Positions 3,344-61,077 are shown, numbered from the stretch's first letter. The stretch is 64,000 bases of DNA from Vulcanimicrobiota bacterium (GCA_963820185.1 CAWFYV010000003.1:365706-429705), one strand, 5' to 3'. The notes: a model not told the origin generated them from the letters alone. Numbers and translations are program-made.

Positions 3344-3346
3344 CGC

Positions 3347-5023: not shown

Positions 5024-6751
5024 TTACCGCAGCAAACGTTGGATCAAGCGCGTGCTGCCCATGCTTTTGTACACCGCATCGCCGCCGCCAGGCGGCGTAC
5101 CGATCATCTCGATAGCATCCACGTCGGAACAGTGTTCGAGCATCAGCAACGGGTGCGCCGGCTCCACGTTCTCGGCTATCACCTCTCGGCCATGGTAACA
5201 GCGCATCGTGAAGGCCTTCGGATACGGTGGCGCGGTCCAATACAATGGGACTTGATCGTCAAATTGCACGGCATCAACACTTCGATCCCCGCCGCGCAGA
5301 CGCACGATGAATTCGTGCTGTGCGGGTCGGATGACCACGGCATACGCACTTGCGGGAAGCGAACGCGCGAGACTTAGAGCGAAAGGAAGAAGCACGACGA
5401 CGCACGTGAGTGCGCCGACGATGGCTTTGGTCCGCACTTCGCTTGAAAGTCTGAACACAACGAGAAGCGCGATGAGCGCTGCCGTGAAGATGAGGAGCGC
5501 GCCGATCGGCCGCGTGTACGGCGCGATGCCGCCCGGATCGCCATCGACCGGAAGGAACAAGCCGAAGTCCACGTGCGACCACAGGAACAGCGCTGCGTAC
5601 GGTATCGATGCTTGTCGACTCTCGAGATACCACAGGGGATTCAACGCGTACGTTATCGTGTTGCCGACGTTTAGCGCCGCCAAGGGAAGGACTGGTAGCC
5701 ATTCCCACCAGTGCGTCGCGAGATACAGCCAATAACACAGCCCCGCCGCAAGGAACGGCAACCCGGCGACCCAGAAGCGCGCCGTCCATGACTCCTGCGC
5801 CGTTGACCACATGAACGTCGCGAAGTAGGTCGCGAAGAGCACGAAACTGTAGACGCAAAGACGCTCGCGACGCACGGTCCCGAGCACGAGGCCGGCCAGA
5901 CCCACGAGGAGCAGCGGCGCGTACGCGATTGCACCGTGGCGAACGTCGTAGAACTGCATCCCGATCCGTTCGAACACCATCGCGATCGATGGTGCGTAGG
6001 CCGGAAATGCCGAGCCCGTAAACGAGCCGTACAGCCAGAATTGCGTTGCCGCAAACGTTCCAAGCCCGGCGGCATACAGCGTGCACGTCTGCAACCACAC
6101 GACGATGGGCACGCGATCGCGCCCCATCTGCACGAGCATAACGGCAAAGAGGGCTAGCGCCAGCGGCAGCGCGCGCAGGTGCACAAACGGTAGCACGACG
6201 ACCGCCGCAAGCGTCGCATAACGATTGCGCACGAGCAGCGCGTAGAGCGCAGCCGTCACAACCGTGAACAGCAGTATCTCCGGGTAGATGAGCTGCAGAT
6301 ACTCAACGAATGGAATGGAGATGGCGATCGCAACAATCGTGACGATCACGGCCCAACTCGCTCCCCCCGTACGATTCGGAAAGCGCAACTTGAGCATGAA
6401 ATACAGCAGCGCCAAACCGATGCAGCCGACGACGAAGTTGAGCCAACGTGCGGCCTCGAGTCCCCCGAGCCGCAGCGCCGCCCCAAAGACGAGACTCGGG
6501 GAAATCGTCTGCAGCGGCCGGCCCGGCTGGTTCGAGGCGAGGATCCCGCCGTTTCCGCACCCATTCGCGGCGGCAAACTGCTTCCACAACGCGTGTTCGG
6601 GATAAAAGCCGCCATTTGCGTAGAGGCCGACGCCTTGGAACGCGTAGCGCACCTCGTCACCCGTGCACGGCAATTTACCTGCGATGAGGTGAATGCCGGC
6701 CAGTACAAGGAAGATCGCAACGAGCCAGAGCCGATCGGCAAACCTCGCCAT
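5024..6751 (-). CDS. polytopic membrane protein, GT-C fold glycosyltransferase-like (ArnT/PMT-like) with C-terminal soluble domain
   Basis: 575 aa with more than 10 predicted TM helices. First-loop motif TGDEVRYAF resembles the DExRY loop of ArnT-type GT-C enzymes. Starts 6 nt after the flhA stop. Confidence 0.45.
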   Translation of the reverse strand: MARFADRLWLVAIFLVLAGIHLIAGKLPCTGDEVRYAFQGVGLYANGGFYPEHALWKQFAAANGCGNGGILASNQPGRPLQTISPSLVFGAALRLGGLEAARWLNFVVGCIGLALLYFMLKLRFPNRTGGASWAVIVTIVAIAISIPFVEYLQLIYPEILLFTVVTAALYALLVRNRYATLAAVVVLPFVHLRALPLALALFAVMLVQMGRDRVPIVVWLQTCTLYAAGLGTFAATQFWLYGSFTGSAFPAYAPSIAMVFERIGMQFYDVRHGAIAYAPLLLVGLAGLVLGTVRRERLCVYSFVLFATYFATFMWSTAQESWTARFWVAGLPFLAAGLCYWLYLATHWWEWLPVLPLAALNVGNTITYALNPLWYLESRQASIPYAALFLWSHVDFGLFLPVDGDPGGIAPYTRPIGALLIFTAALIALLVVFRLSSEVRTKAIVGALTCVVVLLPFALSLARSLPASAYAVVIRPAQHEFIVRLRGGDRSVDAVQFDDQVPLYWTAPPYPKAFTMRCYHGREVIAENVEPAHPLLMLEHCSDVDAIEMIGTPPGGGDAVYKSMGSTRLIQRLLR

Positions 6752-6757
6752 CGCCCT

Positions 6758-8800
6758 TCAATTGGCGATCAATCGGTCACCCACCGCCATGCCCGACGGC
6801 GCAAGCGCCAACTCAGGCGGCAGCTCCGCATAACTGAGCACGTCGACGCGCACGCCCGAACGCAAGAGCAGATCCGCGAGCACAGGGCGTAACGCGATGC
6901 TGCAGAGTACGGCGGCACGGTCGCGCGGTATGCGGGCGACGTATGTGGCAACTTCATCGCGCAGCGCGATCGCGCGCTGCGGATCGGGAGCGAGATCCGC
7001 ACCGAAGCCAACCCATTGACGCACGAGCTCGCGATCGAATTCGGCGTCGACGACGAGCGGCTCCAAGTGCTCGATCCCGCGACGCCGCAGCAGATCGGGA
7101 ACGATTACGCGTCGCGCGGTCTCAGCGAGTTCGCGTGCGTCGCGCGAGGGCGATTCCAACATCGCTTGCAATACGGCGACCGGGTCGCGCGGCCAGGCCG
7201 CCTCGCGCAGCAAATGTCCAAATGCCCGGTGCAGCGTACCCAATGGAAACGCATCCGTACCGACATCGCGAATCAGTGCAGGCATCGTTGCGCGCAGATG
7301 CTCGAGCAACGTCTGCAATTCCTGACGTCCGAGCAATTCGCTCGCGTAGCGGCGCACCGTCTCCGCGACGTGCGAGCCAATGATCGAAATCGGATCGAAG
7401 ACCAGCGCGCCAGCCGACGCAATTCGCTCGCGGTCGTTCGGATCGATCCACGCAGCGGGCAACGAGTAGACCGGTTCGCTCTCCACCCGGAGTCCGAACC
7501 CCGCGAGCAGTTGCGAATCGGCGACGGCCATCACGCGACCGAGCTCGAGCCGTCCCTCCGCAACGACGCGATCGCGTACGCGAATTGCATAGGTTCGCGG
7601 ATCGCGTGCAAGGTCGTCACGCAATCGGACGCCGGGAAGCACGAGGCCGATCTCGCCTGCGAGCGCGCGGCGCACCTCGCCGATGCGATCCAGCAACGCG
7701 TCGGAGAGCGGCGGCACGAGCAGGTGGGCAAGGTCGGCGCCGATATCGATCGCCATTGCGTCGACACCAACGAGGCTGAGCGCGAGCTCGGGGCGGCGCA
7801 ACGCCAGCCGTTTCGCACGGTCACTTGACGCGCGCGCGTCGTCGTCGCTGCGCTTCTTTCGCCGGACCGCAACTTGCGCGAGCACGAACGCACTGGCACC
7901 AAGCACAAGGAATACCGGCCGCGGCAGCGAGGGCACGAATGAAAGCACCACGAGCAATGCACCGGCACTGCGCAACACGTCGGGACGTGCGAAGAGCTGC
8001 GCTGCGAGGTCCGCGCCGAGCGCACCATCGGAGGCGACGCGCGTGACCATCATTCCCATCGCCGTGGATATAAGGAAGGCCGGCAAGGTCGTCACGAGCG
8101 CATTGCCGATCGAGAGAAGCGCAAAGGTATTAATCGCGTCGAGTGGCGAGAGGCCGTGGTAGGCGATGCCCACGACGATCCCGCCGACCAGGTTCAATGC
8201 GACGATCACCAAAGCCGCAATGGCGTCGCCCTTGACGAATTTTCCAGCACCATCCATCGCGCCATAGAAATCGGCCTCGCGCTGGACCGCAGCGCGTTTA
8301 CGACGCGCGCCGTCCGCGTCGAGCGCACCCGCATGCACGTCGGCATCGATCGCCATCTGCTTGCCCGGCATCGCGTCGAGCGTGAAGCGCGCTGCCACTT
8401 CGGCTACACGTTGCGATCCGCTCGCGATCACGACGAATTGAATGGTAATCAGGATCGCGAACACGATCAGGCCCACGACGAGATTGCCGTGGACAACGAA
8501 TGCGCCAAAAGCCGGGATGATCGCGCCGACCGCGCCTGGCGAAGCGCCCTGCGTGAGGATCAAGCGCGTGGCCGATACGTCGAGCGAAAGACGGAAAAGC
8601 GTTGCGACGAGCAGCGCAGGCGCGAAAGCCGAGAACTCGAGCGGATCGTCGATCGTCACCGCAAGCAGGAGCACGAGCGCTGAGCCGAAGATGTTGATCC
8701 CGAGCAACACGTCGAGCAACGCGGGCGGCAGCGGCACGATGAGAATGCCGACGATTGCCAGCAGCACCCCTGCAAAGATGTACACCGGCAAGCGCGTCAC
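6758..8800 (-). CDS. flhA: flagellar/type III export gate protein FlhA (SctV family)
   Basis: 680 aa. FHIPEP-type N-terminal TM domain (FAPALLVATLFRLSLDVSATRLIL, RFTLDAMPGKQMAIDAD, FYGAMDGAGKFVKGDAIA) plus large cytoplasmic C-domain. GTG start overlaps the flhB stop (GTGA). Confidence 0.9.
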   Translation of the reverse strand: MTRLPVYIFAGVLLAIVGILIVPLPPALLDVLLGINIFGSALVLLLAVTIDDPLEFSAFAPALLVATLFRLSLDVSATRLILTQGASPGAVGAIIPAFGAFVVHGNLVVGLIVFAILITIQFVVIASGSQRVAEVAARFTLDAMPGKQMAIDADVHAGALDADGARRKRAAVQREADFYGAMDGAGKFVKGDAIAALVIVALNLVGGIVVGIAYHGLSPLDAINTFALLSIGNALVTTLPAFLISTAMGMMVTRVASDGALGADLAAQLFARPDVLRSAGALLVVLSFVPSLPRPVFLVLGASAFVLAQVAVRRKKRSDDDARASSDRAKRLALRRPELALSLVGVDAMAIDIGADLAHLLVPPLSDALLDRIGEVRRALAGEIGLVLPGVRLRDDLARDPRTYAIRVRDRVVAEGRLELGRVMAVADSQLLAGFGLRVESEPVYSLPAAWIDPNDRERIASAGALVFDPISIIGSHVAETVRRYASELLGRQELQTLLEHLRATMPALIRDVGTDAFPLGTLHRAFGHLLREAAWPRDPVAVLQAMLESPSRDARELAETARRVIVPDLLRRRGIEHLEPLVVDAEFDRELVRQWVGFGADLAPDPQRAIALRDEVATYVARIPRDRAAVLCSIALRPVLADLLLRSGVRVDVLSYAELPPELALAPSGMAVGDRLIAN

Positions 8801-9810
8801 AGGAGTGCCCCGCTCTTAATCAGCGCTGCAACGATCTCCGCGACCGCGATGTAATGCTCGTAGGCGATCGGCTCGCCAACGATACCGTCGCGGTAGAGCG
8901 CACGCGCCAGCGGTACGTTCTCAATTACCGGAACATCGTGTTCCTTGGCAAACTCGCGCACACGTAGCGCCATTTCGTCGGCGGCGCGCACGAGCACCGT
9001 GGGCACCGCAACGTCCGGGGGCCGGTAGTCGAGCGCAACGGCGACGTGCGTCGGGTTCACGACGACAAATGCAGCATCTTTGACTTTCGCAAGCGCGCCA
9101 CGGATAAGATTGCGATGCAGCGCCTTGCGCCGGCTGCGCGCCAGCGGATCACCATCGCTCTCTTTCATCTCACGCTTGAGTTCGGCCAGGCTCATTCGCA
9201 GTTTGCGCAACCATGCGCGCCGGGCGACGCCGTACTCGGCGATGGCGAAGAGCAAACCTACCGCCGCCGCGGCCCAAACCACGTGCTGCGCGCCATTCCA
9301 AGCGATCTGTGCGACGCCTTGCGGCGTTAGCGCGACCGCGCCCGCTCGCGCGAGATCTTGCAGAGCGGGAACCATTGCGAAGGATGCGAGCGCAAACGCG
9401 CAAAGCGCACGCGCACCATGCGTGAGCGCCTCGCGCGAAAACATGCGCTTGAGGCCTTCGCCCGGATTCAAGCGCTCGAGCTTCATCGCCGGCGTCACGA
9501 ACACGAGTCCTCCGCTTTGCAACAGTGCGCCGATGACGCCGCTCACCGCGGCGAGTAGTGCAGGCACGAGCGCGAGTGCGACGACCGCGATTGCTGGCAC
9601 GACGGCATCTGATCCGGCTATCGCGTGCGCAAGCGCTTCTTTCACGAGCGCACCCAACGGAGCGGCAATCGCGCAGACGCCGAGCGCAGCTGCGATAAAT
9701 GCGACGTTCGCGCCGAACTCTTGCGCGCGGGGAACATTGCCCTCGCGTCGTGCCTTCGCGATGCGCGATGGCGGTGCATCGAAGGTCCGCTCACCACTGT
9801 CGGCGCTCAC
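8797..9810 (-). CDS. flhB: flagellar/type III export switch protein FlhB (SctU family)
   Basis: N-terminus ...ERTFDAPPSRIAKARREGNVPRAQE and autocleavage motif VVNPTHVAVAL. Internal GTG at 9810 overlaps the fliR stop (GTGA). The 422-aa track ORF is an over-extension into fliR. Confidence 0.85.
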   Translation of the reverse strand: MSADSGERTFDAPPSRIAKARREGNVPRAQEFGANVAFIAAALGVCAIAAPLGALVKEALAHAIAGSDAVVPAIAVVALALVPALLAAVSGVIGALLQSGGLVFVTPAMKLERLNPGEGLKRMFSREALTHGARALCAFALASFAMVPALQDLARAGAVALTPQGVAQIAWNGAQHVVWAAAAVGLLFAIAEYGVARRAWLRKLRMSLAELKREMKESDGDPLARSRRKALHRNLIRGALAKVKDAAFVVVNPTHVAVALDYRPPDVAVPTVLVRAADEMALRVREFAKEHDVPVIENVPLARALYRDGIVGEPIAYEHYIAVAEIVAALIKSGALL

Positions 9811-10520
9811 GGCCGGCTTCCGGGATAGGGCAGGAGGGGATGGCCGGCGCGCGCCGAGAGCAGCGGAATCGAAACGGCCGTCACCAGCAATACCGCGCCA
9901 AATACAAGCGGGAACGAAAGCGCAAAGCCTGCGAAACGCGGGATGGTACGCGTCAGCGCCGCGACCGCGACCTGCACGACAAATGCAAGCGCAATCGCCG
10001 GAGCAGCCACCGCAGCGCCGACGAGCACGATCGTAGTTGCGAGCGTGCTCGCGAACGCGAGCCAAGCATGCGAATCAAATGGCGCGCCGGGTGCGACGCG
10101 AGCGAAGCTTTCCGAAAACGCGAGGAGTGTCACGCGATAGGCGCCGAGCAAAAAGTAGCCGCCGGTAAATGCAATCGACCACATGCGGCCAAAACCGCTC
10201 GGCGCGACGAGTTGCACGCTCGGTGCCATCGCCTTCACACCGACGTAATCGTCGAGCATGCGCCCACCGGCATAGGCTCCGTCATACAGGAGCGATGCGC
10301 CAATGCCTATCGCGCTTCCAAGCAAGAATTCAACGACGAACGCTATTGCGAGTGCAACGCCGTGCACATGCGCGCCTCGCACGCCGGGGACGATTGCAAT
10401 CGTCAACAAGAGCGCGATCGCCGCGCGCAATGCATGCGGCACGCTTGGGTGCGAGAATCCCGGAGCCCGCGATGCAAATCCGGCGCATCGCGCGAAGACG
10501 AGCAAGGCGGTCGCGTTCAC
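9807..10520 (-). CDS. fliR: flagellar/type III export protein FliR (SctT family)
   Basis: About 237-aa polytopic protein in the fliR slot. GTG at 10520 overlaps the fliQ stop (GTGA). Sequence upstream in the track ORF is Arg-rich junk. Confidence 0.8.
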   Translation of the reverse strand: MNATALLVFARCAGFASRAPGFSHPSVPHALRAAIALLLTIAIVPGVRGAHVHGVALAIAFVVEFLLGSAIGIGASLLYDGAYAGGRMLDDYVGVKAMAPSVQLVAPSGFGRMWSIAFTGGYFLLGAYRVTLLAFSESFARVAPGAPFDSHAWLAFASTLATTIVLVGAAVAAPAIALAFVVQVAVAALTRTIPRFAGFALSFPLVFGAVLLVTAVSIPLLSARAGHPLLPYPGSRP

Positions 10521-10786
10521 GATCCATAGACCAGCGCCGGAATGGCAGCGAGTGCGTCGCCAAAAAGTTGCGCGCACGCGTGCATCCCAAAAGCGCCAAA
10601 GAGCGCGATCGTCAGGCCAACCGCAATGACCTTCGGCAGGAGGGTCAGGGTCTGTTCTTGCACCTGCGTCGCCGCCTGCACGATGGCGATCGCCGTTCCG
10701 ACGAGTGCAGCGAGCGCGAGGACCGGTATGCACAGGATCGCGGCCAGCAGCATCGTCTCACGAAGCAACGCTTCGAATGCGCCCAT
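10517..10786 (-). CDS. fliQ: flagellar/type III export protein FliQ (SctS family)
   Basis: 89 aa, two TM helices. LLAAILCIPVLALAALVGTAIAIVQAATQVQEQTLTLLPKVIAV matches the FliQ pattern. Confidence 0.85.
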   Translation of the reverse strand: MGAFEALLRETMLLAAILCIPVLALAALVGTAIAIVQAATQVQEQTLTLLPKVIAVGLTIALFGAFGMHACAQLFGDALAAIPALVYGS

Positions 10787-10839
10787 GCGCTGACGGTACG
10801 CACGCGGCGTTACCTCAATGTTGCCGAAATTGAGCCGCG

Positions 10840-11505
10840 CTAGCGCACAAGAGCGAAGGCCAGGCCGTCGTACTCCTTCTCACCGACGGTTTGCAAGGCC
10901 GTCGCCTCGAACTGCGGTTCCGTTGCGAGCAGCTCGAGTGCGCGCCGCGCACCAACGATCATTGGATCGGCGTTCGAGGGGTCGGCGACCGCGCCGCCGC
11001 GGACCACGTTATCGACCACAACGAGCGTGCCGGAGCGTGAGAGGCGCAGCCCGCGCCGTAGGTAGTTGGGGTTGTTTTCCTTGTCGGCGTCGATGAAGAT
11101 CATATCGAACGGCGCGGCGCCCTGTGCAATAAGACGATCGAGCGTTTCCAGTGCCGGTGCGACTTCGACAGTAACAAGCGCATCCAGCCCCGCGGCAGCG
11201 AGATTGTCGCGCGCCACGGCCGCGTGCTCCGGATCGATCTCGAGCGTAATCAATTGCCCATCGGGCGGAAGCGCTCGGGCAAGCCAAATCGCGCTGTATC
11301 CTCCGAGCGTGCCAATCTCGAGGATGCGCCGGGCACCGCGCACCCGAGCGAGCAGATACAAGAGTTTCCCCTGCACGGCAGAGACCGCAATCGGCGGCAA
11401 GCCCGCTGCCGCGCTGCGCTCGAGCGCGCGCTGCAGGTCGCGATCCTCGCCGACAAACAGCGAGGAGAGATAGGCATCGACCTCGTTTGCACGATCGGTG
11501 TTCAA
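10840..11505 (-). CDS. class I SAM-dependent O-methyltransferase (family 3, caffeoyl-CoA OMT/YrrM-like)
   Basis: LLARVRGARRILEIGTLGGYSAIWLA (SAM motif I), MIFIDADKENNPNY, LVVVDNV. Probable TTG start at 11505 overlaps the metF stop (TTGA). Confidence 0.8.
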   Translation of the reverse strand: MNTDRANEVDAYLSSLFVGEDRDLQRALERSAAAGLPPIAVSAVQGKLLYLLARVRGARRILEIGTLGGYSAIWLARALPPDGQLITLEIDPEHAAVARDNLAAAGLDALVTVEVAPALETLDRLIAQGAAPFDMIFIDADKENNPNYLRRGLRLSRSGTLVVVDNVVRGGAVADPSNADPMIVGARRALELLATEPQFEATALQTVGEKEYDGLAFALVR

Positions 11506-12401
11506 TGCACAGCTCCGAAACTCGGCCGCCACGCACTCCCGGCGGTCAAGGCCGATACGATTGCGCGCGTGGCGGGCGAACGATTAAGTGTGTAAAAGTG
11601 GATTCCCGGCGATCCGCGGCTGAGCAATTCGGTCGCCTGCAGCGCAGCGTAGGCAACGCCCAAGTCCTCGACCGCTTTTGGATCGTCGCGACGAATTTCG
11701 AGTTCGCGCAGTAGCTTTGGCGGGATCGACGCGCCGATACTCGAGGTGAAACGTGCAACCTGCGAGGCGTTCGTGATCGGCATGAGGCCAGGGATCATCG
11801 GGATGCCGATGCCAAGGCGCTGGGCTCGCCCCAGAAACTCTGCGTAGCGATCGTTATCAAAAAACAGTTGGCTGATGAGGAAGTCCGCGCCCGCGTCGAC
11901 CTTCTCCTTGAGATATGCAAGATCGGCCTCCGGACTCTGCGCCTCCGTGTGCGTCTCGGGATAAAACGCCGCGCCGATACAGAAATCGTAGTTGCGGCGC
12001 AACATCGCGACGAGATCGCTTGCATGCGTAAAGCCGCCCGCCGTCGCTTCAAACGCGGTTGTTCCCTTCGGCGGATCTCCGCGAAGTGCGAGCACGTTCT
12101 GGATGCCGCCTCGTGCGAGATCGTCGAAGAGCGTGCGCAGTTCTGCGCGCGACGAGCCGACGCACGTCACGTGCGCCATTACCGTCAATCCGATGTCGCG
12201 TTGTATTTGTTTAGCCAGCGATACCGTCCGCTCGCGCGACGAACCGCCCGCGCCGTAGGTGATCGAGACGAAGGCCGGGCGCAGTGGCGCGAGCAATTCG
12301 ATCGTGGCAAGAAGCGCGCGCGCACCATCGTCATCCTTCGGCGGAAAGAACTCGAAGGAGAAGAACGGTCGCTGCGTCGCAAGGGCCTCGGAGATGCGCA
12401 C
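11502..12401 (-). CDS. metF: 5,10-methylenetetrahydrofolate reductase
   Basis: PFFSFEFFPPKDDDG, FVSITYGAGGSSRERT, VMAHVTCVG. GTG at 12401 gives an N-terminus of normal length; the track start at 12434 is a TTG overlapping fliP. Confidence 0.85.
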   Translation of the reverse strand: MRISEALATQRPFFSFEFFPPKDDDGARALLATIELLAPLRPAFVSITYGAGGSSRERTVSLAKQIQRDIGLTVMAHVTCVGSSRAELRTLFDDLARGGIQNVLALRGDPPKGTTAFEATAGGFTHASDLVAMLRRNYDFCIGAAFYPETHTEAQSPEADLAYLKEKVDAGADFLISQLFFDNDRYAEFLGRAQRLGIGIPMIPGLMPITNASQVARFTSSIGASIPPKLLRELEIRRDDPKAVEDLGVAYAALQATELLSRGSPGIHFYTLNRSPATRAIVSALTAGSAWRPSFGAVH

Positions 12402-12414
12402 GATGGCCTTGCGA

Positions 12415-13098: not shown

Positions 13099-13134
13099 CG
13101 TTTTATGGAAAAATAATTGCGGAAACGTGAACGG

Positions 13135-14222: not shown

Positions 14223-14941
14223 TTCAAGAGGTCCATAGCGGTCTTTCCGTTGGCACCTTGTGCCTTGTGTATCGCCTGCAGCGCGTCGAAAGCAATATAT
14301 GCTTCCTCAAGACGATCAAGACTGCGGTCGAAATCGATGCGGCTTTCCTCGCGCTGCATCGGCCCAACGTTTGAAAAACTTCCGTCGCCGGCGCGGCCGA
14401 CGTGCGGCAATGTCCCAAGTGGTGCAACGAAGTGATTCGCATCGACGACGCCGAGCTTCGTCGCCGCCGGGAAACGCGCAAGCGCCAATTGTCCTACTGC
14501 GACGCGTTCACGCTCGCGCGCGCCGCTGCGAGGATCGATAACCGTGCGGTCGTACGCAAGTGTGCCGTCAGCTTCGACACGTAGATTCAGCACGCGGCCA
14601 AGCGCCTCGTCGACCGGGTCAACGCGCAGTTCGCTTGCGACGCCGTTGCGCGGCGTGAATCCAAGCACCGCGCGCCCGTTCGCGCCGGCGAGCATTCCGT
14701 CGCACAGCGTGAAGCCTCCGTCACGCGTGTATACCGAGCGCCCGCGTTCATCAGTGGTCAAAAAGAACGCGTCGGCCGGCGGTGCGACCGAGAGCGGATC
14801 GAGCGCCGGATCCGACGCAGGACGCTCGGTTGCCACGTCGCCGAATTGCGGGAACGCGCCAGGCGTGAAAGCACGCTGCACGTCGGCCGCTCGCTGCGCG
14901 ATCCGGTCGAGAGCGTCTTGCGTGGCTGCATTGACCATCAT
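14219..14941 (-). CDS. flagellar hook/rod family protein (FlgE/FlgF/FlgG-like, short)
   Basis: 240 aa in the flgE slot. FFLTTDERGRSVYTRDGGFTLCDGMLAGANGRAVLGF, QLALARFPAATKLGVVDANHFVAP and C-terminal EEAYIAFDALQAIHKAQGANGKTAMDLL resemble conserved hook/rod segments. The N-terminal rod motif is degenerate. Confidence 0.6.
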   Translation of the reverse strand: MMVNAATQDALDRIAQRAADVQRAFTPGAFPQFGDVATERPASDPALDPLSVAPPADAFFLTTDERGRSVYTRDGGFTLCDGMLAGANGRAVLGFTPRNGVASELRVDPVDEALGRVLNLRVEADGTLAYDRTVIDPRSGARERERVAVGQLALARFPAATKLGVVDANHFVAPLGTLPHVGRAGDGSFSNVGPMQREESRIDFDRSLDRLEEAYIAFDALQAIHKAQGANGKTAMDLLK

Positions 14942-14944
14942 GAT

Positions 14945-15478
14945 TTAAGCCTCCGTGACGTCGCTGTGAAGCGAGATGCCACGAGCGGCGAGTGCGTAGC
15001 GCGCCTCGTCGAGCGCGCGCAAGACGCGCGTTTGGATGGACGCGGGACATACCGCGATGATACGCACCCCTGCCGGCGTCGTCTGCAACGCGACGTGCAC
15101 CCGGGCTCGCGTGCCGTCCACGGTGAATGTCGCTCGCGCTGCGCGCACAAGCGGATTGAGAAACGTCCGTTCGATTCGCCGCGCAAGCGCGGAACGCTCC
15201 GCGCGCCGTTCGGGGGCGGCTATGGCGCGCGGTTTCGATACCGCTTGACGCACGATCGTGCGCGCATCGGGTTTTTCGAGACGCGAACGCTCCCGCGATT
15301 CGCTCGCGTGTATCCCTCGCACGCACGGCGATGCATCGCCGCGAGCCGGCACTTGCGTTTGTGAGGCTTGACCTGCCCGCGCGAGATGCAGTGCGGAATA
15401 CCAGGCCTGGGAGAGTGCGCGGCGGTCGATGGCCGCAAGGGGCGCAGTGAGAATGTTGAAGCCGAGTTGCTGGGTCAT
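14945..15478 (-). CDS. hypothetical protein, FliK (hook-length control) C-terminal-domain-like
   Basis: In the fliK slot. C-terminal ATFTVDGTRARVHVALQTTPAGVRIIAVCPASIQTRVLRALDEARYALAARGISL resembles the FliK C-domain pattern. An alternative TTG start at 15505 is possible. Confidence 0.4.
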   Translation of the reverse strand: MTQQLGFNILTAPLAAIDRRALSQAWYSALHLARAGQASQTQVPARGDASPCVRGIHASESRERSRLEKPDARTIVRQAVSKPRAIAAPERRAERSALARRIERTFLNPLVRAARATFTVDGTRARVHVALQTTPAGVRIIAVCPASIQTRVLRALDEARYALAARGISLHSDVTEA

Positions 15479-15550
15479 GCCCGCATCGTCCGCCCCGGCG
15501 GTCAACGCGGCATCGCCGATTCGTTGCCGGATTATTATGAGCGGCCCTAG

Positions 15551-17161
15551 TTACTGTGGGATGCGGCGGTCGTGCCCGTCGTCGAAGCCTTGGGCTTTTT
15601 GCAAATAGAGCGCATGGTTTGCAAGATCGAAGGTCACTACGAAATTACGCAACGATCCGTAGCCAACGTTACCACCGTCATTGCGGTCGGCGAACGCACC
15701 TGTGGTGCTCAGAACCACGTCGGCATAGCGGTTGAGGAGCCGATAGGGACCAAGCTGCAGGACGTTGACGATCGTTCCGACCGTGTCAACCGACCCGCCG
15801 ACCCCGCGATTGAGCGTCGGCCCCAGCATCGCGAGCGACACGAGTCCGGGATGCTGGTCGACAAAGTTCTTGAACACGAGCAGCTCCTTCGAATTCCCGG
15901 TATCGACGATCACGCGCGTTGACGCGCCCTGGAGCTCCGCCGTAATCTCGGGCAACTCGCGGTCGGTATCGACATCGAGTTTGGTGCCGTCGAGCGGCAG
16001 CGAGCCCGGCTGCGCAATCGTAATGTTGGTCTGCGTCGGATCGATGCGCAGTTCGGCGGCGGCAAAAAACGGATAGCCGAGAATGCCGTCAACACTCGTC
16101 GCCGGAAATTGGGGCAACTTGAGTACCGTTGCAACGTGCATCGGGAACGTCACACCACCAAGTGTGATCGGCGGCGCTTCGACGATGCCGGGGCTGGTGG
16201 TCCGTCCCGTGCCGCGGATCTCGACGGTGCCCTCCGGGTGTAGGCCGAGCGTCGCCGCGAGCGATACGTCGAAAAAGTCGGTCTGCGCCGCCGAATCGAC
16301 GAGAAACGTGTAGCGCTTCTCGTCGATCGTCACCTTGACGAACATCAGTCCGCCGCGATCCTCGTATGGCACCGTGACCGGCGTCGCATTCGCGACCGCC
16401 GATGCGGTAAACGACGTAAAGACCCAAGCCGCAATCGGCTGATTGACGGTCACGGTCGTAATATGCGAGGTGATATCGAAAGCGTGCGTCCCGTCCGAGT
16501 CGACCTCGGTGTACGGAACCAAGAAGCCGTCGACGACCTTGTAATCGCTGTACGTTTCCGTCTGCATGCTGTCGCCGTTGACAAACGCCATTTGGTCAAC
16601 GAGCCACGTTGTTGTATCGAGTCCTACCCGGGACGGCTCTCCGTTGGGCGGCGCAACGGCAAGAACATACACGTCACGCCCATCATAGAGCTTCTCGCGG
16701 TCCACAAAGCGCACGTCCTCGGGATGCCGCGCAAACGCGCCGCTGCCGATGAAGTCTTCGGTGAGTTGGCGGCGCGCGACGATCCCCTGCAACTCGCGCA
16801 TCTCGCCGTTTGCATTCTGCTGCCAGAGACGATCACCGATACGCAAGATGCGTTCAGTACCAATCCCGAACTTGTCGTCGCGACGCGATTTGTCGCCCTG
16901 CGCCCACTCGTGAAACGTGCCGGAGAAGCCGGCACCGAGCAGCGTCCCGGTGGTTTCGTGTGTCTGCGGCTCGCGCACGTGCAAGGCCTCGAGCGCGTCG
17001 AGGTGTTTAGCGAGCATTGTTGCGAGCGGAGGAAGCGGTGCCGGGCTTTGCGCGCAGAGCGCGCCTATGCAGGCAAAAAGAAGCGCGCTACGGCGTAGCT
17101 GCTCCCCGATACTTGGTGTAACTAGCCAGGACGTTCTGCACGTAATTTTGGGTTTCGGCAT
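15551..17161 (-). CDS. secreted protein with N-terminal LolA-like region and two tandem retropepsin-like aspartic protease domains
   Basis: Signal-like LRRSALLFACIGALCAQSPAP. First lobe FVKVTIDEKRYTFLVDSAAQTD..ILGYPFF, second lobe STRVIVDTGNSKELLVF...GNVGYGSLRNF (DSA and DTG catalytic-type motifs). Start uncertain; ATG 17161 chosen. Confidence 0.6.
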   Translation of the reverse strand: MPKPKITCRTSWLVTPSIGEQLRRSALLFACIGALCAQSPAPLPPLATMLAKHLDALEALHVREPQTHETTGTLLGAGFSGTFHEWAQGDKSRRDDKFGIGTERILRIGDRLWQQNANGEMRELQGIVARRQLTEDFIGSGAFARHPEDVRFVDREKLYDGRDVYVLAVAPPNGEPSRVGLDTTTWLVDQMAFVNGDSMQTETYSDYKVVDGFLVPYTEVDSDGTHAFDITSHITTVTVNQPIAAWVFTSFTASAVANATPVTVPYEDRGGLMFVKVTIDEKRYTFLVDSAAQTDFFDVSLAATLGLHPEGTVEIRGTGRTTSPGIVEAPPITLGGVTFPMHVATVLKLPQFPATSVDGILGYPFFAAAELRIDPTQTNITIAQPGSLPLDGTKLDVDTDRELPEITAELQGASTRVIVDTGNSKELLVFKNFVDQHPGLVSLAMLGPTLNRGVGGSVDTVGTIVNVLQLGPYRLLNRYADVVLSTTGAFADRNDGGNVGYGSLRNFVVTFDLANHALYLQKAQGFDDGHDRRIPQ

Positions 17162-17678
17162 AGGGCGGTACCCCGCCATACTTCTCCACCGCACCCGGGC
17201 CGGCATTGTAGGCGGCGACGGCAAGTCGCACGTCGCCGTTGAAACGATCGAGCAGGCCTTTGATGTATTTCGTGCCACCTGCTACATTCTGCGCGGGATC
17301 GTAGGCATCTGTGACACCGAGGCCGGAAGCCGTGCCGGGCATCAGCTGCATGAGTCCCTGCGCGCCGACGTTCGACGTGGCGTTTGCATTAAAGCCCGAC
17401 TCGTTCGCGATGATCGCCTTGATCAGCGCGGGGTCGACCTCTTGCGATTGTGCGTTCTCGTTGACGAGTGCATCGATTTGCGCAGGCGGAACCATCGCCG
17501 GGGCGTTTGGCGCAGCGCTATCCACCGGCGAGCCCTGCGCGGCCATCTGCGACTGCAGCATTGCGGCAAACGAGCCTGCTTCGGGGGTCGCTTCGGGCAG
17601 GCCGGGCAGTTGCACCGGCGCCCCGGTGATCTGTTCGATGCGGGTGGCAACGGCGGAAAGGTCAGACGTTATATCCAT
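17088..17678 (-). CDS. lytic transglycosylase (SLT domain), flagellar/T3SS-associated type
   Basis: IIANESGFNANATSNVGAQGLMQLMPGTA...AYNAGPGAVEKYGGVPPYAETQNYV is a classical SLT family-1 domain (catalytic E-S, AYNAG). Confidence 0.8.
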   Translation of the reverse strand: MDITSDLSAVATRIEQITGAPVQLPGLPEATPEAGSFAAMLQSQMAAQGSPVDSAAPNAPAMVPPAQIDALVNENAQSQEVDPALIKAIIANESGFNANATSNVGAQGLMQLMPGTASGLGVTDAYDPAQNVAGGTKYIKGLLDRFNGDVRLAVAAYNAGPGAVEKYGGVPPYAETQNYVQNVLASYTKYRGAATP

Positions 17679-18693
17679 GGGCTTCTCCCAACATATCGGC
17701 GGTTTGCCCGAGCGCCTCTAGGGAGCCCAGGTACGAAACCGGCTCCCGGCCTTGGCGCAGCAGCCGTTCCAGCGCATCCTCGGCCGCGATCGCGGCCCGG
17801 GTCGGTTCGTCTACCGGTTCTATACCAAGCGAGCGGGCGTCAGCGCAGTGCTCCAGGCGTGCGAGGGCGGCGCGAACGCTTGCGGCGGCGCGCCGGTGCC
17901 CGCAGCCCGCTACCGCGTCCATCGTTCGGCTCGCGCTCGCGAGCACATCGATCGCTGGGAAGCGGCCGGCCTGGGCCAGGCGCGGAGCAAGCTGAAGATG
18001 ACCATCGAGCAGCGAGCGCGCGCACTCGCTCACCGGGTCGTGATCCTCGCCATCGTTGAGGACGGTGACAAGCATCGTGATCGAACCCATAGCCAACGCG
18101 CCGGCACGTTCAACCAGGCGCGCCACGCGTGCAAAGACGCTCGGCGGATAGCCACCGCGACCAACGCTCTCGCCGCCACGCACCGCGATTTCGCGAAGGG
18201 CGTATGTATAACGCGCGAGGCTATCGAGCACGACGAGCACGTGCAAGCCTCGCGACGCGAGCGCGCACGCTTGTGCCATTACGAGTTCCGCCGCGTGTAC
18301 GCGCTCCTCGGCGCTGCGATCGCTCGTCGCGCAGATCACGGTGGTGCGCTCGTCGCGTGCGGCGATCCAACGCTGTGCCTCGCGTCCACGCTCGCCGATC
18401 AGCCCGATAACGACCGCGTCGGTACGCGCGCCCGCAACGATCGTTTCGAGTAACGTTGATTTGCCTGCGCCGGGCGCACCAAAGATGCCGACGCGAGCGC
18501 CGCGACCGATCGTCAACAACGTGTCGACACAGCGCACGCCCGTCCAAAGCGGCTCGAGGATTGCGCGCCGCTGCGACGGCAGCGGCGCGGGCGCGTCGAC
18601 GCGAACGCGCACACCGTCGATCGGGTTCCCTCCGTCGAGCGGAGTACCGGAGACATCGAGCGCGCGTCCGAGTGCCGCCGTTCCTAACATCAT
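17662..18693 (-). CDS. fliI: flagellar/type III ATPase FliI (SctN family), lacking the N-terminal beta-barrel domain
   Basis: Walker A GIFGAPGAGKSTLL, Walker B LVVLDSLARY, GSITMLVTVL, RFPAIDVLASASR. ATG at 18693 overlaps the fliH-like stop (ATGA). The protein begins at MMLGTAALGRALDVSGTPLDG, which in canonical FliI follows about 90-100 aa. Confidence 0.85.
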   Translation of the reverse strand: MMLGTAALGRALDVSGTPLDGGNPIDGVRVRVDAPAPLPSQRRAILEPLWTGVRCVDTLLTIGRGARVGIFGAPGAGKSTLLETIVAGARTDAVVIGLIGERGREAQRWIAARDERTTVICATSDRSAEERVHAAELVMAQACALASRGLHVLVVLDSLARYTYALREIAVRGGESVGRGGYPPSVFARVARLVERAGALAMGSITMLVTVLNDGEDHDPVSECARSLLDGHLQLAPRLAQAGRFPAIDVLASASRTMDAVAGCGHRRAAASVRAALARLEHCADARSLGIEPVDEPTRAAIAAEDALERLLRQGREPVSYLGSLEALGQTADMLGEAHGYNV

Positions 18694-19106
18694 CGCAGGG
18701 CGCCCTCCGCAAGCAAATGCGACAACGGCACGCGTAACTGCGCGCCCAAAGAGCCACAGCGCAGTTCGATCACCGCGTCTTCCTGGCACAGCTGCTCATC
18801 GGCGACGAGCGGAAGACCAATGCCTTGCGCCGCTGCCATGCGTGAAGGATGCACGCGCACCGTCAACGGCGCCTTAGGTTCGCCGCGTTCGTGCACGTAA
18901 TCGAACGCATCGTCGAGCATCGCGCGAAAACGTCGAATACGCGCGCACACCTCGTCGATGAGCTCGTCTTGCGGCGCTGGCGCTTCAACCGCTTCCGGCT
19001 CCGGTTCGAGCACCTGCGGCTCTTCGATGACGGCGAACGGTTCTTCCGTAGTCGCGGGCTCGCGCAGCCAGCTTGCGAGCGACACGAATTCAACCATGTC
19101 GCGCAA
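18690..19106 (-). CDS. FliH/SctL-like ATPase regulator (short, 138 aa)
   Basis: In the fliH slot. Acidic N-half; C-terminal LTVRVHPSRMAAAQGIGLPLVADEQLCQEDAVIELRCGSLGAQLRVPLSHLL fits the FliH C-domain pattern. Confidence 0.5.
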   Translation of the reverse strand: MRDMVEFVSLASWLREPATTEEPFAVIEEPQVLEPEPEAVEAPAPQDELIDEVCARIRRFRAMLDDAFDYVHERGEPKAPLTVRVHPSRMAAAQGIGLPLVADEQLCQEDAVIELRCGSLGAQLRVPLSHLLAEGALR

Positions 19107-20562
19107 GCAATTCGTCGGCGCTGGGGATCACCGAGCCGTGGGCACGTTGCATGCGTTTGATGATTGCCTCGCGCTCGTGCGGAGGATAGAGCTCCAACAC
19201 CGCGGCCGCCGTCGCGGCCGGCAAGGCGCTGATAATCGCGGCAGCCGCGTGCGGCGGTTCCCCGGCAAGCGCACCGCGCACGCGCGCCGGCGCGTATCCG
19301 GCGACCGTTTGTGATGTGCGAGCAATCGCATCACGTTCGAGAACGCCTTTGACCAGGGCGTGTGCACTCGGAACAAGCCCGCGCCCGAGGAGCAGTAACC
19401 CTGTAACGATCGCGAGCGTCGGTAAGAGCGGCACGATTGCTCCATAGAGCAGAAACCATCCGTCGCGCTTCTGCTGCAATGCGCGATGAAAGTTCACCGC
19501 CTGAACGGTGAGTTCGTCCCCCCGGCGCGGATCGTACCCCACGGTCGCGGCTGCCAGCTCGCGGACTTTCGCGAGATCGGCGCCGCGCTCGGCATCGACA
19601 AAGACTGCGGTCGAGACGCGCGCGAGTGCGCCCGGCTCAGCGTGCGTCACACTTTCCTGTGTCACGCTTCCGCGATCGTCGTGCACGTCGTTCTTTGCGT
19701 ACTTTTTGCCGGCGCCCTCATATGATTCACTCGCGGTCGTGCGCTCGATGGGATTGCCGGCGACCGGCGCGCGGCGTGTATCGCGCTCTTCCGAAGTAAC
19801 ACGGGTGTACTCGTCGTGCACGCGAACGATCGTCACCCCCGTGCCGAGCGCGGCGTCCAGTGCGGACTGCAGCGAGTGCTCGAGCGTGCCGGGGTCATCG
19901 TCCCCGCCGCCATTCTCTCCGAGTGCAACGCCGCGATCGTCGAGCATCGTCACATTGGTCGCCTCGAGTCCCGCGACCGAGGCTGCAACAAAACGCCGTA
20001 TACCATCCACGGCATCGCGCGAGAGCACGACTCCGGGATGTAGCTGCAGCCGCACGCTCGCGGTCGCCGAACGGGTGCTTTGGTCGGCGAACTCGGCGCT
20101 CTGCGCCGGCGCAACGATGACGTGTGCATCGTCGACACCCTCGACGCTGCGCAACGCCATCGCAATATCGCCGGCGAGCCCGCTGCGCGTCTGGGCGTCG
20201 ATGACTGCCTGCGGGGTGAGCACGCCGACGTTCGCTAACGCCTCGCTCGTCGTCTCGACATGCGCATGCGGAACGCCCGCGAGCGAAAGTCGCAGCAGCA
20301 GATCGTTGCGCCGCGACGCATCGACGGTCACGTTGTCGGCGGCGGGTGAGAACGGGACGCTCCAGGCGGCAAGTTGCTCCTGTACTTCGGTAAGCTGTTC
20401 CGCGTGCAGTGGGCTCGCAAACAGTGGCACGCGGTCGGGATGTCCGACGATCGTTGCAACCAGTGCGAACGCGGCAAGCAATCCGAAGACGGCAAGGGCG
20501 ATAATGCGCATCGATGCCGGGAGAGTACGCAACCTGGCAAGCAGCGGCCGCAAGTGGACCAT
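19090..20562 (-). CDS. fliF: flagellar MS-ring protein FliF (SctJ family) with FliG-N-like C-terminal tail
   Basis: 490 aa. N-terminal TM, YscJ/FliF periplasmic repeats (LFASPLHAEQLTEVQEQLAAWSVPFS..., LRSVEGVDDAHVIVAP), second TM WFLLYGAIVPLLPTLAIVTGLLLL, then cytoplasmic EPPHAAAAIISALPAATAAAVLELYPPHEREAIIKRMQ. Confidence 0.8.
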   Translation of the reverse strand: MVHLRPLLARLRTLPASMRIIALAVFGLLAAFALVATIVGHPDRVPLFASPLHAEQLTEVQEQLAAWSVPFSPAADNVTVDASRRNDLLLRLSLAGVPHAHVETTSEALANVGVLTPQAVIDAQTRSGLAGDIAMALRSVEGVDDAHVIVAPAQSAEFADQSTRSATASVRLQLHPGVVLSRDAVDGIRRFVAASVAGLEATNVTMLDDRGVALGENGGGDDDPGTLEHSLQSALDAALGTGVTIVRVHDEYTRVTSEERDTRRAPVAGNPIERTTASESYEGAGKKYAKNDVHDDRGSVTQESVTHAEPGALARVSTAVFVDAERGADLAKVRELAAATVGYDPRRGDELTVQAVNFHRALQQKRDGWFLLYGAIVPLLPTLAIVTGLLLLGRGLVPSAHALVKGVLERDAIARTSQTVAGYAPARVRGALAGEPPHAAAAIISALPAATAAAVLELYPPHEREAIIKRMQRAHGSVIPSADELLARHG

Positions 20563-20566
20563 AGGA

Positions 20567-20833
20567 TCAAATCTGCAGGTTTAGCAAAGACGCAATGGCT
20601 TGGGCGGCACGCTGCGCAGCCGCGGTCGCAACCGAAAGCGCAACGTCGGCCTGCGCCCGCTGGTACATCGCATCTTGTAACGAACCCGTGCCGCTAGCAT
20701 AAGCATCTTCGGCTTTGGTCGCCTGATCGAGCACCTTGCCGATCGCATCCAGGGCTTGAGCAAATCCCGTCTGGTCGCCCGGCGCGGCGGCGGTTTGCGG
20801 CGCCGTGTCGGGTTGCAATAGCTCGATCCTCAT
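20567..20833 (-). CDS. fliE: flagellar hook-basal body complex protein FliE
   Basis: 88 aa in the fliE slot. GFAQALDAIGKVLDQATKAEDAYASGTGSLQDAMYQRAQADVALSVATAAAQRAAQAIASLLNLQI fits FliE. Confidence 0.7.
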   Translation of the reverse strand: MRIELLQPDTAPQTAAAPGDQTGFAQALDAIGKVLDQATKAEDAYASGTGSLQDAMYQRAQADVALSVATAAAQRAAQAIASLLNLQI

Positions 20834-21159
20834 GCGAGCCGTCCCATGTCGATCGTGTGTTCCTCGAGTGTCTTGCCGACGTCGAAGAGCGATGCATCGG
20901 ACTCGTAGGCGCGCGACGCATTCATCACCGCGATCATCTCGGTGATCACATCGACGTTATTGCCGCGCTCCTCGCGCGTGCCGGCAAACTGCACGATCGT
21001 GTCTCCGCCTTCGCCGCTCAACGTGAACTCCGGAATCTGCCGTGAATAGCTGCCGTTAGGACCGGCTGCTTCGGCTGCGGCAACGTTGCGTGCGCACACG
21101 TCGAGCGCTGCACGTTGTGCGTCCATGGCGCTGGCGGCGCTCGCGAGCAAATCGCTCAT
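20830..21159 (-). CDS. flgC: flagellar proximal rod protein FlgC
   Basis: 109 aa (short). N-terminal MDAQRAALDVCARNVAAAEA and C-terminal NVDVITEMIAVMNASRAYESDASLFDVGKTLEE match FlgC conserved ends. Confidence 0.7.
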   Translation of the reverse strand: MSDLLASAASAMDAQRAALDVCARNVAAAEAAGPNGSYSRQIPEFTLSGEGGDTIVQFAGTREERGNNVDVITEMIAVMNASRAYESDASLFDVGKTLEEHTIDMGRLA

Positions 21160-21371
21160 TTCGTCGCCGCCTTGACTTCCTCGAGGCGTGCGTGCATTGC
21201 GCCCAGCAGCGCCTCGTCGAAAATTGCGGCTTGCGCCGTTTGCGCCATCGCGGCATCGGCCGTGCGGCCGCCTGGGTCGGCGTTGGCGCGCGCCACGCTC
21301 GCTTGCGCTTGCGCTAATCGTTCAGCAGCGGTTTGCAGTCCGCCACGCAGGGAATCGGCGACGTCGAACAT
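21156..21371 (-). CDS. small protein in the flgB slot, FlgB N-terminal-like (71 aa, truncated relative to canonical FlgB)
   Basis: ATG at 21371. AERLAQAQASVARANADPGG weakly resembles the rod N-terminal ANxxTPG motif. The upstream part of the track ORF overlaps the divergent TMEM175 gene and was discarded. Confidence 0.35.
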   Translation of the reverse strand: MFDVADSLRGGLQTAAERLAQAQASVARANADPGGRTADAAMAQTAQAAIFDEALLGAMHARLEEVKAATK

Positions 21372-61071: not shown

Positions 61072-61077
61072 GCGCTC

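Follow-up and report, generated by a model that had tools for sequence, protein, structure and literature searches.

A lineage-wide, reduced flagellar operon of Vulcanimicrobiaceae and Baltobacteraceae that probably encodes a non-rotating basal body and a type III export apparatus

Loci resembling those of flagella have been reported from a dozen species that are believed to be without flagella (PMC3459982). In the non-motile Buchnera aphidicola, the flagellar locus has shrunk to the basal body, for which a role as protein exporter was proposed (Maezawa 2006 and Toft & Fares 2008, cited in PMC3459982). Lysobacter enzymogenes OH11, a soil bacterium without flagella, moving by type IV pili, carries leftover genes of a flagellar type III secretion system (T3SS); they are expressed and serve to export proteins, and twitching depends on them (PMC7688988, PMC7277350). 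The needleless T3SS* of Myxococcus has neither secretin nor needle; its functionality was first argued from conservation and is now tied to contact-dependent prey killing (PMC3459982, PMC12075869). Here, we describe a flagellar-type operon in a 64,000-nt stretch of DNA (G+C content 62%; called the window below) from a Vulcanimicrobiota bacterium (GCA_963820185.1, CAWFYV010000003.1:365706-429705). Its gene content and conservation suggest that the Vulcanimicrobiaceae/Baltobacteraceae share, across the lineage, a functional flagellar system in reduced form, consisting of a non-rotating basal body and a type III export apparatus, a reading to which we give a probability of roughly 60%. Literature searches on flagella and T3SS of Eremiobacterota, on flagellar relics or remnants and on natural FliF-FliG fusions returned no description of this locus. 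The statement in a preliminary description of the window that no system of this exact composition has been described thus holds for the searched literature, Buchnera, Lysobacter and Myxococcus being the close precedents.

The operon is formed by 20 open reading frames (ORFs), all in the same direction on the minus strand, from position 21371 down to 5024. ORF calling, in which start codons were picked by reference to the upstream stop, confirmed this plainly non-random arrangement and the many 4-nt overlaps given in the preliminary description. Such start/stop overlaps, of the ATGA/GTGA type, are present at nine junctions (FlgB-like/FlgC, FlgC/FliE, FliH/FliI, 240-residue axial protein/FliM, FliM/FliN, MetF/O-methyltransferase, FliQ/FliR, FliR/FlhB and FlhB/FlhA). 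The other junctions lie between a 17-nt overlap and a 53-nt gap, with the exception of the retropepsin gene, which overlaps the SLT gene by 74 nt and has a conserved MPK(R/P)K start at 17161. A scan of the operon for promoters and terminators gave counts not above those of shuffled sequence, so the operon boundaries are drawn from gene spacing alone. The initial gene labels were verified for 17 of the 20 genes (by Pfam, NCBIfam, PDB profiles or a structure model); the label of the FliK-like gene is weakly supported, and "FlgB" for the 71-residue first gene and "GT-C" (glycosyltransferase C-type) for the last gene are unverified. The window copies of four genes have no Pfam match: the 71-residue first gene, the FliH-like gene, the FliK-like gene and the gene of the 575-residue membrane protein.

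The gene order is that of the fla/che operon of Bacillus subtilis, a likeness proposed at the outset and confirmed for the shared genes. A gene at the flgB position is followed by flgC, fliE, fliF, fliH, fliI, fliK, a flgE-family gene, fliM, fliN/Y, fliP, fliQ, fliR, flhB and flhA. In contrast to the B. subtilis-type operon, however, there is no separate fliG, fliJ, flgD, fliL, cheY, fliO, flhF/G or sigD, and no stator, junction, filament or cap gene is found nearby. The axial proteins are shrunken (71, 109, 88 and 240 amino acids), and metF, a protease gene and an SLT gene are embedded in the operon.

Relatives of the locus were collected by scanning one genome per GTDB species with the FliP of the window, which yielded 216 relatives. 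The best 80 of them, with a FliP identity of 69-94%, were used for the locus comparison, and synteny was determined by searching these loci with the 20 window proteins (tblastn). Most of the records bear Eremiobacterota/Vulcanimicrobiota names (Aquilonibacter, Tumulicola, Cybelea, Baltobacteraceae), and several are complete chromosomes; Candidatus Aquilonibacter is a member of the Vulcanimicrobiaceae. Some records titled Candidatus Acidoferrum/Acidiferrales (Acidobacteriota) also carry the Eremiobacterota-type operon, with a FliP identity of 89-92% (loci L001-L003 and L013) or 78% (L077); these SMAG TPA bins are probably mislabelled or contaminated.

Across the ~80 species-level loci, the order is almost everywhere alike. 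The 5' part reads FlgB-position gene, FlgC, FliE, FliF, FliH, FliI, SLT, protease (variable), FliK-like protein and 240-residue axial protein, and the 3' part FliM, FliN, FliP, MetF, O-methyltransferase (variable), FliQ, FliR, FlhB, FlhA, SecD and SecF. Protein lengths are constant, with medians of 71, 110, 88, 489, 343, 196, 185, 240, 263, 92, 218, 299, 89, 237, 337 and 681 amino acids, and intact ORFs of constant length are present in about 50-79 species-level genomes. The ratio of nonsynonymous to synonymous substitutions (dN/dS; pairwise Nei-Gojobori estimates between the window and three relatives, at a dS of ~1) is 0.02-0.27 for all T3SS genes but FliH, the same range as for SecD and MetF. 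FliN shows values of 0.02-0.04, and FliH, with 0.18-0.50, has the highest in the operon. The conserved synteny, together with the intact ORFs and the low dN/dS, indicates that the locus is maintained by selection.

The preliminary description had offered two explanations, the first of which was a vestigial, decaying flagellar locus without current function. Decay would account for the many missing canonical genes, for the loss of the N-terminal domain of FliI in 32 of 61 loci and the fast evolution of FliH, and for the unrelated genes (metF, the O-methyltransferase gene, toxin-antitoxin-like genes, transporters) inserted at junctions in various lineages. In locus L075, flhA is apparently broken, though an assembly error is equally possible. 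This explanation is scarcely credible, however, in view of the intact ORFs and strictly conserved gene order in so many genomes, and of dN/dS values equal to those of housekeeping neighbours. The FliM family forms as many as 175 clusters at 50% identity, the catalytic and gating motifs are kept, and mis-assembly is an unlikely source of a selection and synteny signal that is seen across independent assemblies. Decay was therefore rejected on the basis of synteny, ORF lengths and dN/dS. A routine, lineage-specific layout had been named in the preliminary description as a point against its interpretation. The layout is indeed typical of the lineage, which speaks for a function and not for ordinary flagella.

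The membrane/supramembrane (MS) ring is represented by a FliF protein of 490 amino acids (19090-20562, minus strand; Pfam YscJ_FliF 5e-25, YscJ_FliF_C 2e-11), which scores higher with the NCBIfam model for FliF than with that for SctJ. Within this protein, residues 427-473 (GEPPHAAAAIISALPAATAAAVLELYPPHEREAI..RM; 19144-19284, minus strand) match the armadillo-type (ARM) middle domain of FliG (Pfam FliG_M), with an E value of 1.1e-6 for the whole protein and 1.6e-7 for the fragment. A weaker match of the same stretch is to MgtE_N, which has a related fold. All 24 FliF orthologues contain the FliG_M match, the best at 3e-9, and precomputed annotations show it in nearly all of 120 database homologues. 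When 71 sequences are aligned, GEPPHAAAAIISALPAATAAAVLELYPPHEREAI(I/V)(K/R)RMQR is almost invariant and constitutes the most conserved part of FliF. Read by eye, E-P-P-H ... R stands where FliG has EHPQR, the motif by which the FliG middle domain binds FliM. An AlphaFold2 (AF2) model of the C-terminal fragment (predicted local distance difference test, pLDDT, 64.6) had FliG as 13 of its 14 top matches in Foldseek, but at E values of at least 0.14; several of these matches are middle domains from FliG-FliM co-crystals. The model was taken as weak corroboration of the Pfam match.

Because the start of fliH overlaps the stop of fliF, a separate fliG could not fit here; the window and the syntenic loci that were examined have no such gene between the two. 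Nothing resembling the C-terminal torque domain of FliG was found in the operon. The claim that fliG is missing thus stands for a separate gene and for the torque domain at this locus, but not for the FliG_M motif, which is fused to the C-terminus of FliF. From these alignments, we infer that FliG was cut to its FliM-binding middle-domain motif and covalently joined to FliF. Engineered FliF-FliG fusions of Salmonella and Vibrio reportedly still assemble rings. Those contain the full-length FliG including the torque domain, whereas the natural fusion would keep only ~50 residues of the middle-domain motif.

The partner of this motif would be FliM (267 amino acids; 13419-14222, minus strand), which is composed of a CheC-like middle domain and a SpoA C-terminal domain according to AF2 and Foldseek; Pfam matches FliMN_C in the window copy. 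The AF2 model, built from 80 homologues, has a pLDDT of 87.6 and matches the full-length Salmonella FliM in cryo-electron microscopy structures of the cytoplasmic (C) ring with a Foldseek E value of 5e-11. The isolated FliM middle domains match with a template-modelling (TM) score of 0.57-0.65 and a root-mean-square deviation of 3.4-4.3 Å, followed by CheC/CheX. What had been called FliM-like therefore has a genuine FliM fold. No LSQxEID-type CheY-binding N-terminus was seen, as read by eye from the sequence. The FliM clusters mentioned above come from a library of 1.84 billion proteins; most of these clusters are ~250-270 amino acids long and the remainder are shorter fragments. FliN (13135-13422, minus strand; Pfam FliMN_C 2e-25) reaches 99.9 bits with its NCBIfam model, above the cutoff.

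The proteins of the axial structure are small. FlgC (20830-21159, minus strand; Pfam Flg_bbr_C 2.7e-5) is a short proximal rod protein of 109 amino acids, and its family profile finds Salmonella FlgC in the PDB (7bin) at 4e-11. FliE (20567-20833, minus strand) has 88 amino acids, matches Pfam FliE at 8.5e-6 and is present in 54 loci. The first gene of the operon, at the flgB position (21156-21371, minus strand), encodes a protein with a helical hairpin as judged by eye; it is conserved in 53 loci with a median of 71 amino acids. This protein has no match in Pfam or the PDB, and hhalign gives a probability of 3.5% against the FlgC family. The position alone says FlgB, and the label, given as FlgB-like in the preliminary description, was dropped as unproven after these negative profile searches.

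The 240-residue protein (14219-14941, minus strand), initially assigned to the hook or rod, does belong to this family: the D1 domain of FlgE/F/G is present in 24 of 24 orthologues. Against the PDB, its profile matches FlgE best (3a69 and 6jzt, 5e-13), with FlgG/FlgF at 2e-4 to 7e-3. It is thus an axial protein closest to FlgE, a kind of mini-hook, which is too small to have room for a D2 domain. The gene upstream (14945-15505, minus strand) encodes a probable ruler and substrate-switch protein of the FliK type, with 186 amino acids; Salmonella FliK has 405. The top PDB match of its profile is the T3S4 domain of Salmonella FliK (2rrl), at the expected C-terminal position, with an E value of 0.038 and an hhalign probability of 81%. 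Its N-terminal 40 amino acids are nearly invariant. The profile match is suggestive of a FliK-type ruler only.

The export gate is made up of FliP (12415-13098, minus strand; Pfam 3e-72; TIGR01103 227 bits against a cutoff of 217), FliQ (10517-10786, minus strand; Pfam 2e-19), FliR (9807-10520, minus strand; Pfam 9e-25, the start at 10520 giving the 4-nt overlap with the FliQ stop), FlhB (8797-9810, minus strand; Pfam 6e-76) and FlhA (6758-8800, minus strand; FHIPEP 2e-191), whose closest PDB chains are flagellar FlhA. The translation of FlhB contains the NPTH autocleavage site (VVNPTHVAVAL). The protein upstream of the ATPase is short (135 amino acids; 18690-19097, minus strand), and its identity with FliH, proposed from the sequence, was borne out by its orthologues, of which 22 of 24 match PF02108 (best E value 1e-16).

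The ATPase is of the FliI/SctN type (343 amino acids; 17662-18693, minus strand; ATP-synt_ab 1e-58) and has no N-terminal domain. It aligns to Salmonella FliI only from residue 93 of the 2dpy chain, or from residue 111 of the 456-residue 5b0o. The Walker A, Walker B and catalytic GERGRE motifs are retained in the translation. The start ATG of fliI overlaps the fliH stop in the clade of the window and in the Cybelea clade. The N-terminal domain (~75 amino acids) is kept in 29 of 61 loci, which are the more distant ones; the loci that have lost it (among them L024, L026, L032, L040, L057 and L061) have kept FliH, and the loss probably happened in more than one event. In flagella, this domain builds the collar of the hexamer and binds FliH. 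Type III export can, however, run on proton-motive force without the ATPase, so the loss of the FliI N-terminal domain need not abolish function.

The relationship to the two known kinds of T3SS was assessed with NCBIfam models and gene content. The flagellar model scores higher than the Sct model for FlhA (599 against 489 bits), FliP (227 against 184), FliQ (60 against 53) and FliR (63 against 45). An early branch of the non-flagellar (injectisome) lineage, intermediate in the manner of the needleless Myxococcus system, would be in agreement with the reverse order for the ATPase (SctN 317, FliI 292 bits) and FlhB (SctU 220, FlhB 211 bits), with the even division of the PDB matches of the ATPase between SctN and FliI, and with the lack of a motor and a filament. 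The core proteins, except FliP and FliN, also lie far below the trusted cutoffs of both families. Such a placement is nonetheless very improbable. FlgC and FliE are present, and FlgB/FlgC/FliE are the flagellum-specific markers of Abby & Rocha (PMC3459982). The MS-ring protein FliF is of full length, a CheC-like middle domain is present in FliM and the operon includes a FlgE-family gene, whereas Pfam found no domain of the SctC secretin, SctD, SctF or SctI in the 20 genes or in ten other ORFs of the window, in line with the absence of secretin and needle genes noted earlier. In a published FlhA tree, one Eremiobacteraeota FlhA stands beside a flagellar FlhA of Armatimonadetes (PMC10284905). 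This combination of flagellar proteins that are present and injectisome proteins that are absent places the system on the flagellar side, by gene content and model scores.

The injectisome likewise does not rotate; it shares the export gate and ATPase, has a cytoplasmic platform with SpoA domains, and comes with a ruler protein and its own dedicated lytic transglycosylase. In contrast, no secretin, SctD, SctF needle, SctI, tip or translocon is encoded here, and the FliM/FliN platform would be tethered through the FliG remnant, whereas SctQ/K/L of the injectisome are docked on SctD. The Myxococcales T3SS* likewise has no secretin, needle or motor and is strongly conserved in a soil lineage. However, the myxobacterial systems are devoid of FlgBCDEK, FliE and FliG and stand in or at the base of the non-flagellar clade (PMC3459982). 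Here, FlgC, FliE, FliM, a FlgE-like protein, the full-length FliF and the FliG_M motif are kept, which argues for an independent derivative from the flagellar side and not for a system of the Myxococcus type.

The other missing genes were searched for in the operon, the rest of the window and the relatives. As stated in the preliminary description, fliJ, flgD, fliL, cheY, fliO and flhF are missing from their expected slots; like fliG, they have no slot in any locus, and where relatives have larger gaps, these are filled by unrelated genes. The locus also encodes no distal rod proteins of the FlgF/FlgG type, no FlgD and no L/P-ring proteins. The fliN-fliP junction (13099-13134) leaves no room for fliO upstream of fliP. 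According to a 2025 survey, FliO was lost in two phyla only (PMC12248157); either it is encoded elsewhere or the present lineage is a further exception. The earlier reading that the window has no motAB, flagellin, flgKL, fliD or sigD gene agrees with ours, as none was recognised in the 64 kb by translations read by eye and by Pfam on ten uncertain ORFs outside the operon, three of which stayed without a match. Neither were motAB, filament or junction genes found in the ±10-kb flanks of the 80 relatives.

The family has a single cultured member, Vulcanimicrobium alpinum WC8-2. It is a diderm without flagella or a flagellin gene; its movement relies on type IV pili, and Tad/Flp genes are present as well (PMC9758169). 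In its gene table, fliN (WPS_28550) is grouped with the chemotaxis genes, and fliG, fliM, motA and motB do not appear (PMC9758169). This is the content that the present operon would yield under routine annotation. In published phylogenies, Eremiobacteraeota sequences are included in the FlhA and FliI trees and none is in the FliC tree (PMC10284905).

These absences have to be weighed against an ordinary flagellum that has diverged, whose motor, hook cap, junction, filament and regulators would be encoded at other loci and which would serve for swimming under conditions that have not been seen. We regard this as unlikely. Flagellar genes are often spread over several loci, the FliK-like protein and the NPTH site of FlhB are retained as for hook-length control and substrate switching, there is a true FliM/FliN ring, and annotation pipelines name the operon proteins flagellar. 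On the other hand, fliG nearly always follows fliF in flagellar operons, whereas in all loci of the present operon the fliF stop lies within an overlap with fliH, and the end of FliF is a FliG_M-type motif where a FliG_N-binding tail would be usual. The N-terminus of FliM, read by eye, is not one that binds CheY, and the distal rod, FlgD and L/P-ring proteins are not encoded at the locus. The cultured isolate and the published trees also speak against it (PMC9758169, PMC10284905).

The second explanation of the preliminary description, a basal-body and export machine kept for something other than motility, is the best-supported reading; its key premise, a genome-wide absence of the remaining flagellar genes, was checked indirectly, through the window, the ±10-kb flanks of relatives and the one isolate. 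The non-rotating basal body could work as follows. With the FliG motif as part of FliF, the MS ring would hold the FliM/FliN ring directly: FliF would form rings with a built-in docking motif for FliM, on which the FliM/FliN ring assembles. Since there is no FliG torque domain, no CheY-binding peptide was seen and no stator is in sight, this ring would not be a motor, being neither driven nor switched. Together with FliH and FliI, it would instead act as a sorting platform for the FliPQR-FlhB-FlhA gate. Driven by proton-motive force and helped by FliH/FliI, the gate would export FliE, FlgC, the mini-hook protein and perhaps the 71-residue protein. These axial proteins may form a short tube of controlled length, passing through a hole that the SLT enzyme cuts in the peptidoglycan. 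The short FliK and the NPTH site of FlhB would limit the length of the tube and switch the export specificity. After the switch, non-flagellar cargo is probably exported, or the result is an envelope-spanning structure. The more far-reaching proposal, that the family turned the flagellum independently into a non-rotating nanomachine, with the FliG motif welded to the MS ring so as to fix the FliM/FliN platform to the gate, and with the axial structure cut down to a stub of FlgC, FliE and the D2-less FlgE-like protein that is measured by the ruler, a machine that would export cargo or bridge the envelope, is held tentatively, at somewhat less than even odds.

Several points weigh against this interpretation. 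The absence of fliG(C), motAB, flgD, flgKL, fliC and fliD covers the window and the ±10-kb flanks only, and the presence of the operon in V. alpinum is suggested by the fliN entry alone. The FliG_M assignment is a short hidden Markov model match of 47 residues, for which the fragment model is poor and the Foldseek E values are not significant. The loss of the FliI N-terminal domain, along with the fast evolution of FliH, could mean that the machine is partly degenerating. FliK is weakly identified and the 71-residue protein is without identification. Finally, the presence of a ruler together with an NPTH switch implies that there are late substrates; in ordinary flagella, these are the filament proteins.

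The role of the apparatus might also be indirect, in supporting type IV pili, as in Lysobacter, or in seeding membrane nanotubes, a function said to have been proposed for the export core of Bacillus, and not in secretion of cargo. The rings, axial proteins, ruler and lytic enzyme seem more than a nanotube or regulatory role needs, and none of the loci shows a pilus gene linked to the operon, which makes this explanation improbable. In its favour, deletion of flhA, flhB, fliI or fliR abolished twitching in L. enzymogenes OH11 (PMC7277350), and V. alpinum is itself a type IV pilus-motile organism with Tad/Flp genes (PMC9758169).

Among the described remnants, the flagellar T3SS of L. enzymogenes OH11 is the best functional analogy to the non-rotating export apparatus proposed for Eremiobacterota. 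The Lysobacter case, however, is a recent loss in one gammaproteobacterial genus, with more flagellar genes left, with FlgD secreted and with no FliF-FliG fusion reported. The Eremiobacterota system is more streamlined and conserved over far more divergent genomes (FliP down to ~70% identity). Buchnera is similar in that a flagellar locus is kept in a form reduced to the basal body. It retains fliG and the ordinary rod, hook and ring genes. Moreover, Buchnera is an obligate endosymbiont undergoing genome reduction, whereas the present operon is fixed family-wide in free-living soil and peat hosts with genomes of 2-4.5 Mb. The operon is thus set apart from the systems of Buchnera, Lysobacter and Myxococcus by its family-wide fixation in free-living hosts, its compact single-operon form, the FliF-FliG(M) fusion without torque domain and the shrunken axial set.

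Besides the basal body and gate proteins, the operon encodes several further proteins. The SLT lytic transglycosylase, an enzyme that clears peptidoglycan (17088-17678, minus strand; Pfam SLT 1e-31), is found at the same position in 56 loci. The next gene (15551-17161, minus strand) encodes a secreted protein with two retropepsin-like aspartyl-protease domains, and the earlier reading as a tandem retropepsin-like protease was correct, Asp_protease_2 being matched in two stretches (6.5e-17). The domains carry DTG/DSG motifs; in the window copy, the first motif is DSAA instead of DTGA/DSGA. The N-terminal half has no Pfam assignment and looks LolA-like by eye. In most loci, an orthologue of 520-590 amino acids with a signal peptide is encoded at this place, after SLT and before the FliK-like gene; only L025 and L075, which are Cybelea-type loci, are without it. 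Blank tblastn results had suggested its absence from distant loci, which was rejected after inspection of the ORFs revealed an orthologue.

MetF, a methylenetetrahydrofolate reductase (11502-12401, minus strand; Pfam MTHFR 3e-92), is encoded between fliP and fliQ. The same position in 73 of the fetched loci indicates that the insertion is old and fixed. In contrast, the class-I O-methyltransferase (10840-11505, minus strand; Methyltransf_3 1e-40) is shared with 12 close relatives only and is considered accessory, outside the conserved system. The last gene of the operon (5024-6751, minus strand) encodes a polytopic membrane protein of 575 amino acids, without a Pfam match at E<=5, so that the original GT-C label is not verified; it also lies outside the conserved locus, being found in the window and in L007 only. 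In nearly all relatives, flhA is directly followed by secDF. In the window, secD-secF is located at 2068-4723, the membrane protein gene being wedged between flhA and secDF, and secD could have its promoter at 4824-4796, where there is a sigma-70-like site.

Across lineages, unrelated cargo has been inserted at the fliP/metF, metF/fliQ and flhA/secD junctions, as in L007 (10660-12749), L036 (10681-13733), L061 (11545-13038) and, downstream of flhA, L025 and L075. A search of the larger gaps in relatives for hidden fliO, fliJ, chaperones or effectors was not borne out, as the gap genes look unrelated. By eye, they include toxin-antitoxin-like, TetR, racemase, GNAT, phospholipase-C-like and transporter/solute symporter genes.

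The other ORFs of the window that could be assigned, most of them by eye from the translations, are housekeeping genes, such as those for SecDF, a resistance-nodulation-division (RND) pump, ribosomal proteins, LysS, GreA, CoaBC/PanC, LexA and SucCD. A stand-alone PilZ-domain protein (46565-46924; Pfam 5e-14), a possible receptor for cyclic di-GMP, is encoded ~25 kb from the operon. A GDP-mannose 4,6-dehydratase gene (62009-64000), which runs off the end of the window, contains an insert of ~330 amino acids with a LAGLIDADG-type domain and looks like an intein. The ORFs at 60914-62002, 50819-54713, 36495-38537 and 1341-2096, including those of an epimerase and a large outer-membrane protein, are split, or end or continue in Arg/Ala-rich low-information sequence, which suggests frameshifts, pseudogenes or assembly errors.

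If true, the proposed architecture would be the first natural FliF-FliG(M) fusion, and a living intermediate that shows how a motor can become a secretion system, in parallel to the origin of the injectisome. Until now, the case for an evolution from flagellum to secretion has been built mostly on the systems of Myxococcus and on relics in endosymbionts. The Eremiobacterota operon would add a widespread, selected derivative from the flagellar side that bears a clear molecular signature of motor loss, in the deleted FliG torque domain and the FliM-binding motif joined to FliF, and is testable in the culturable V. alpinum. Its ~16 proteins make up a compact set for a basal body and export gate, which would be useful for structural and synthetic work. 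TXSScan calls flagella by markers of the kind retained here. Schemes that call a flagellum from the export core together with FlgB/FlgC/FliE (the markers of PMC3459982) would score these genomes as flagellated, and motility-trait and ancestral-flagellation inferences for the phylum would be inflated. As Eremiobacterota are abundant in peat, tundra and Antarctic soils, an export machine of this kind would be of ecological relevance.

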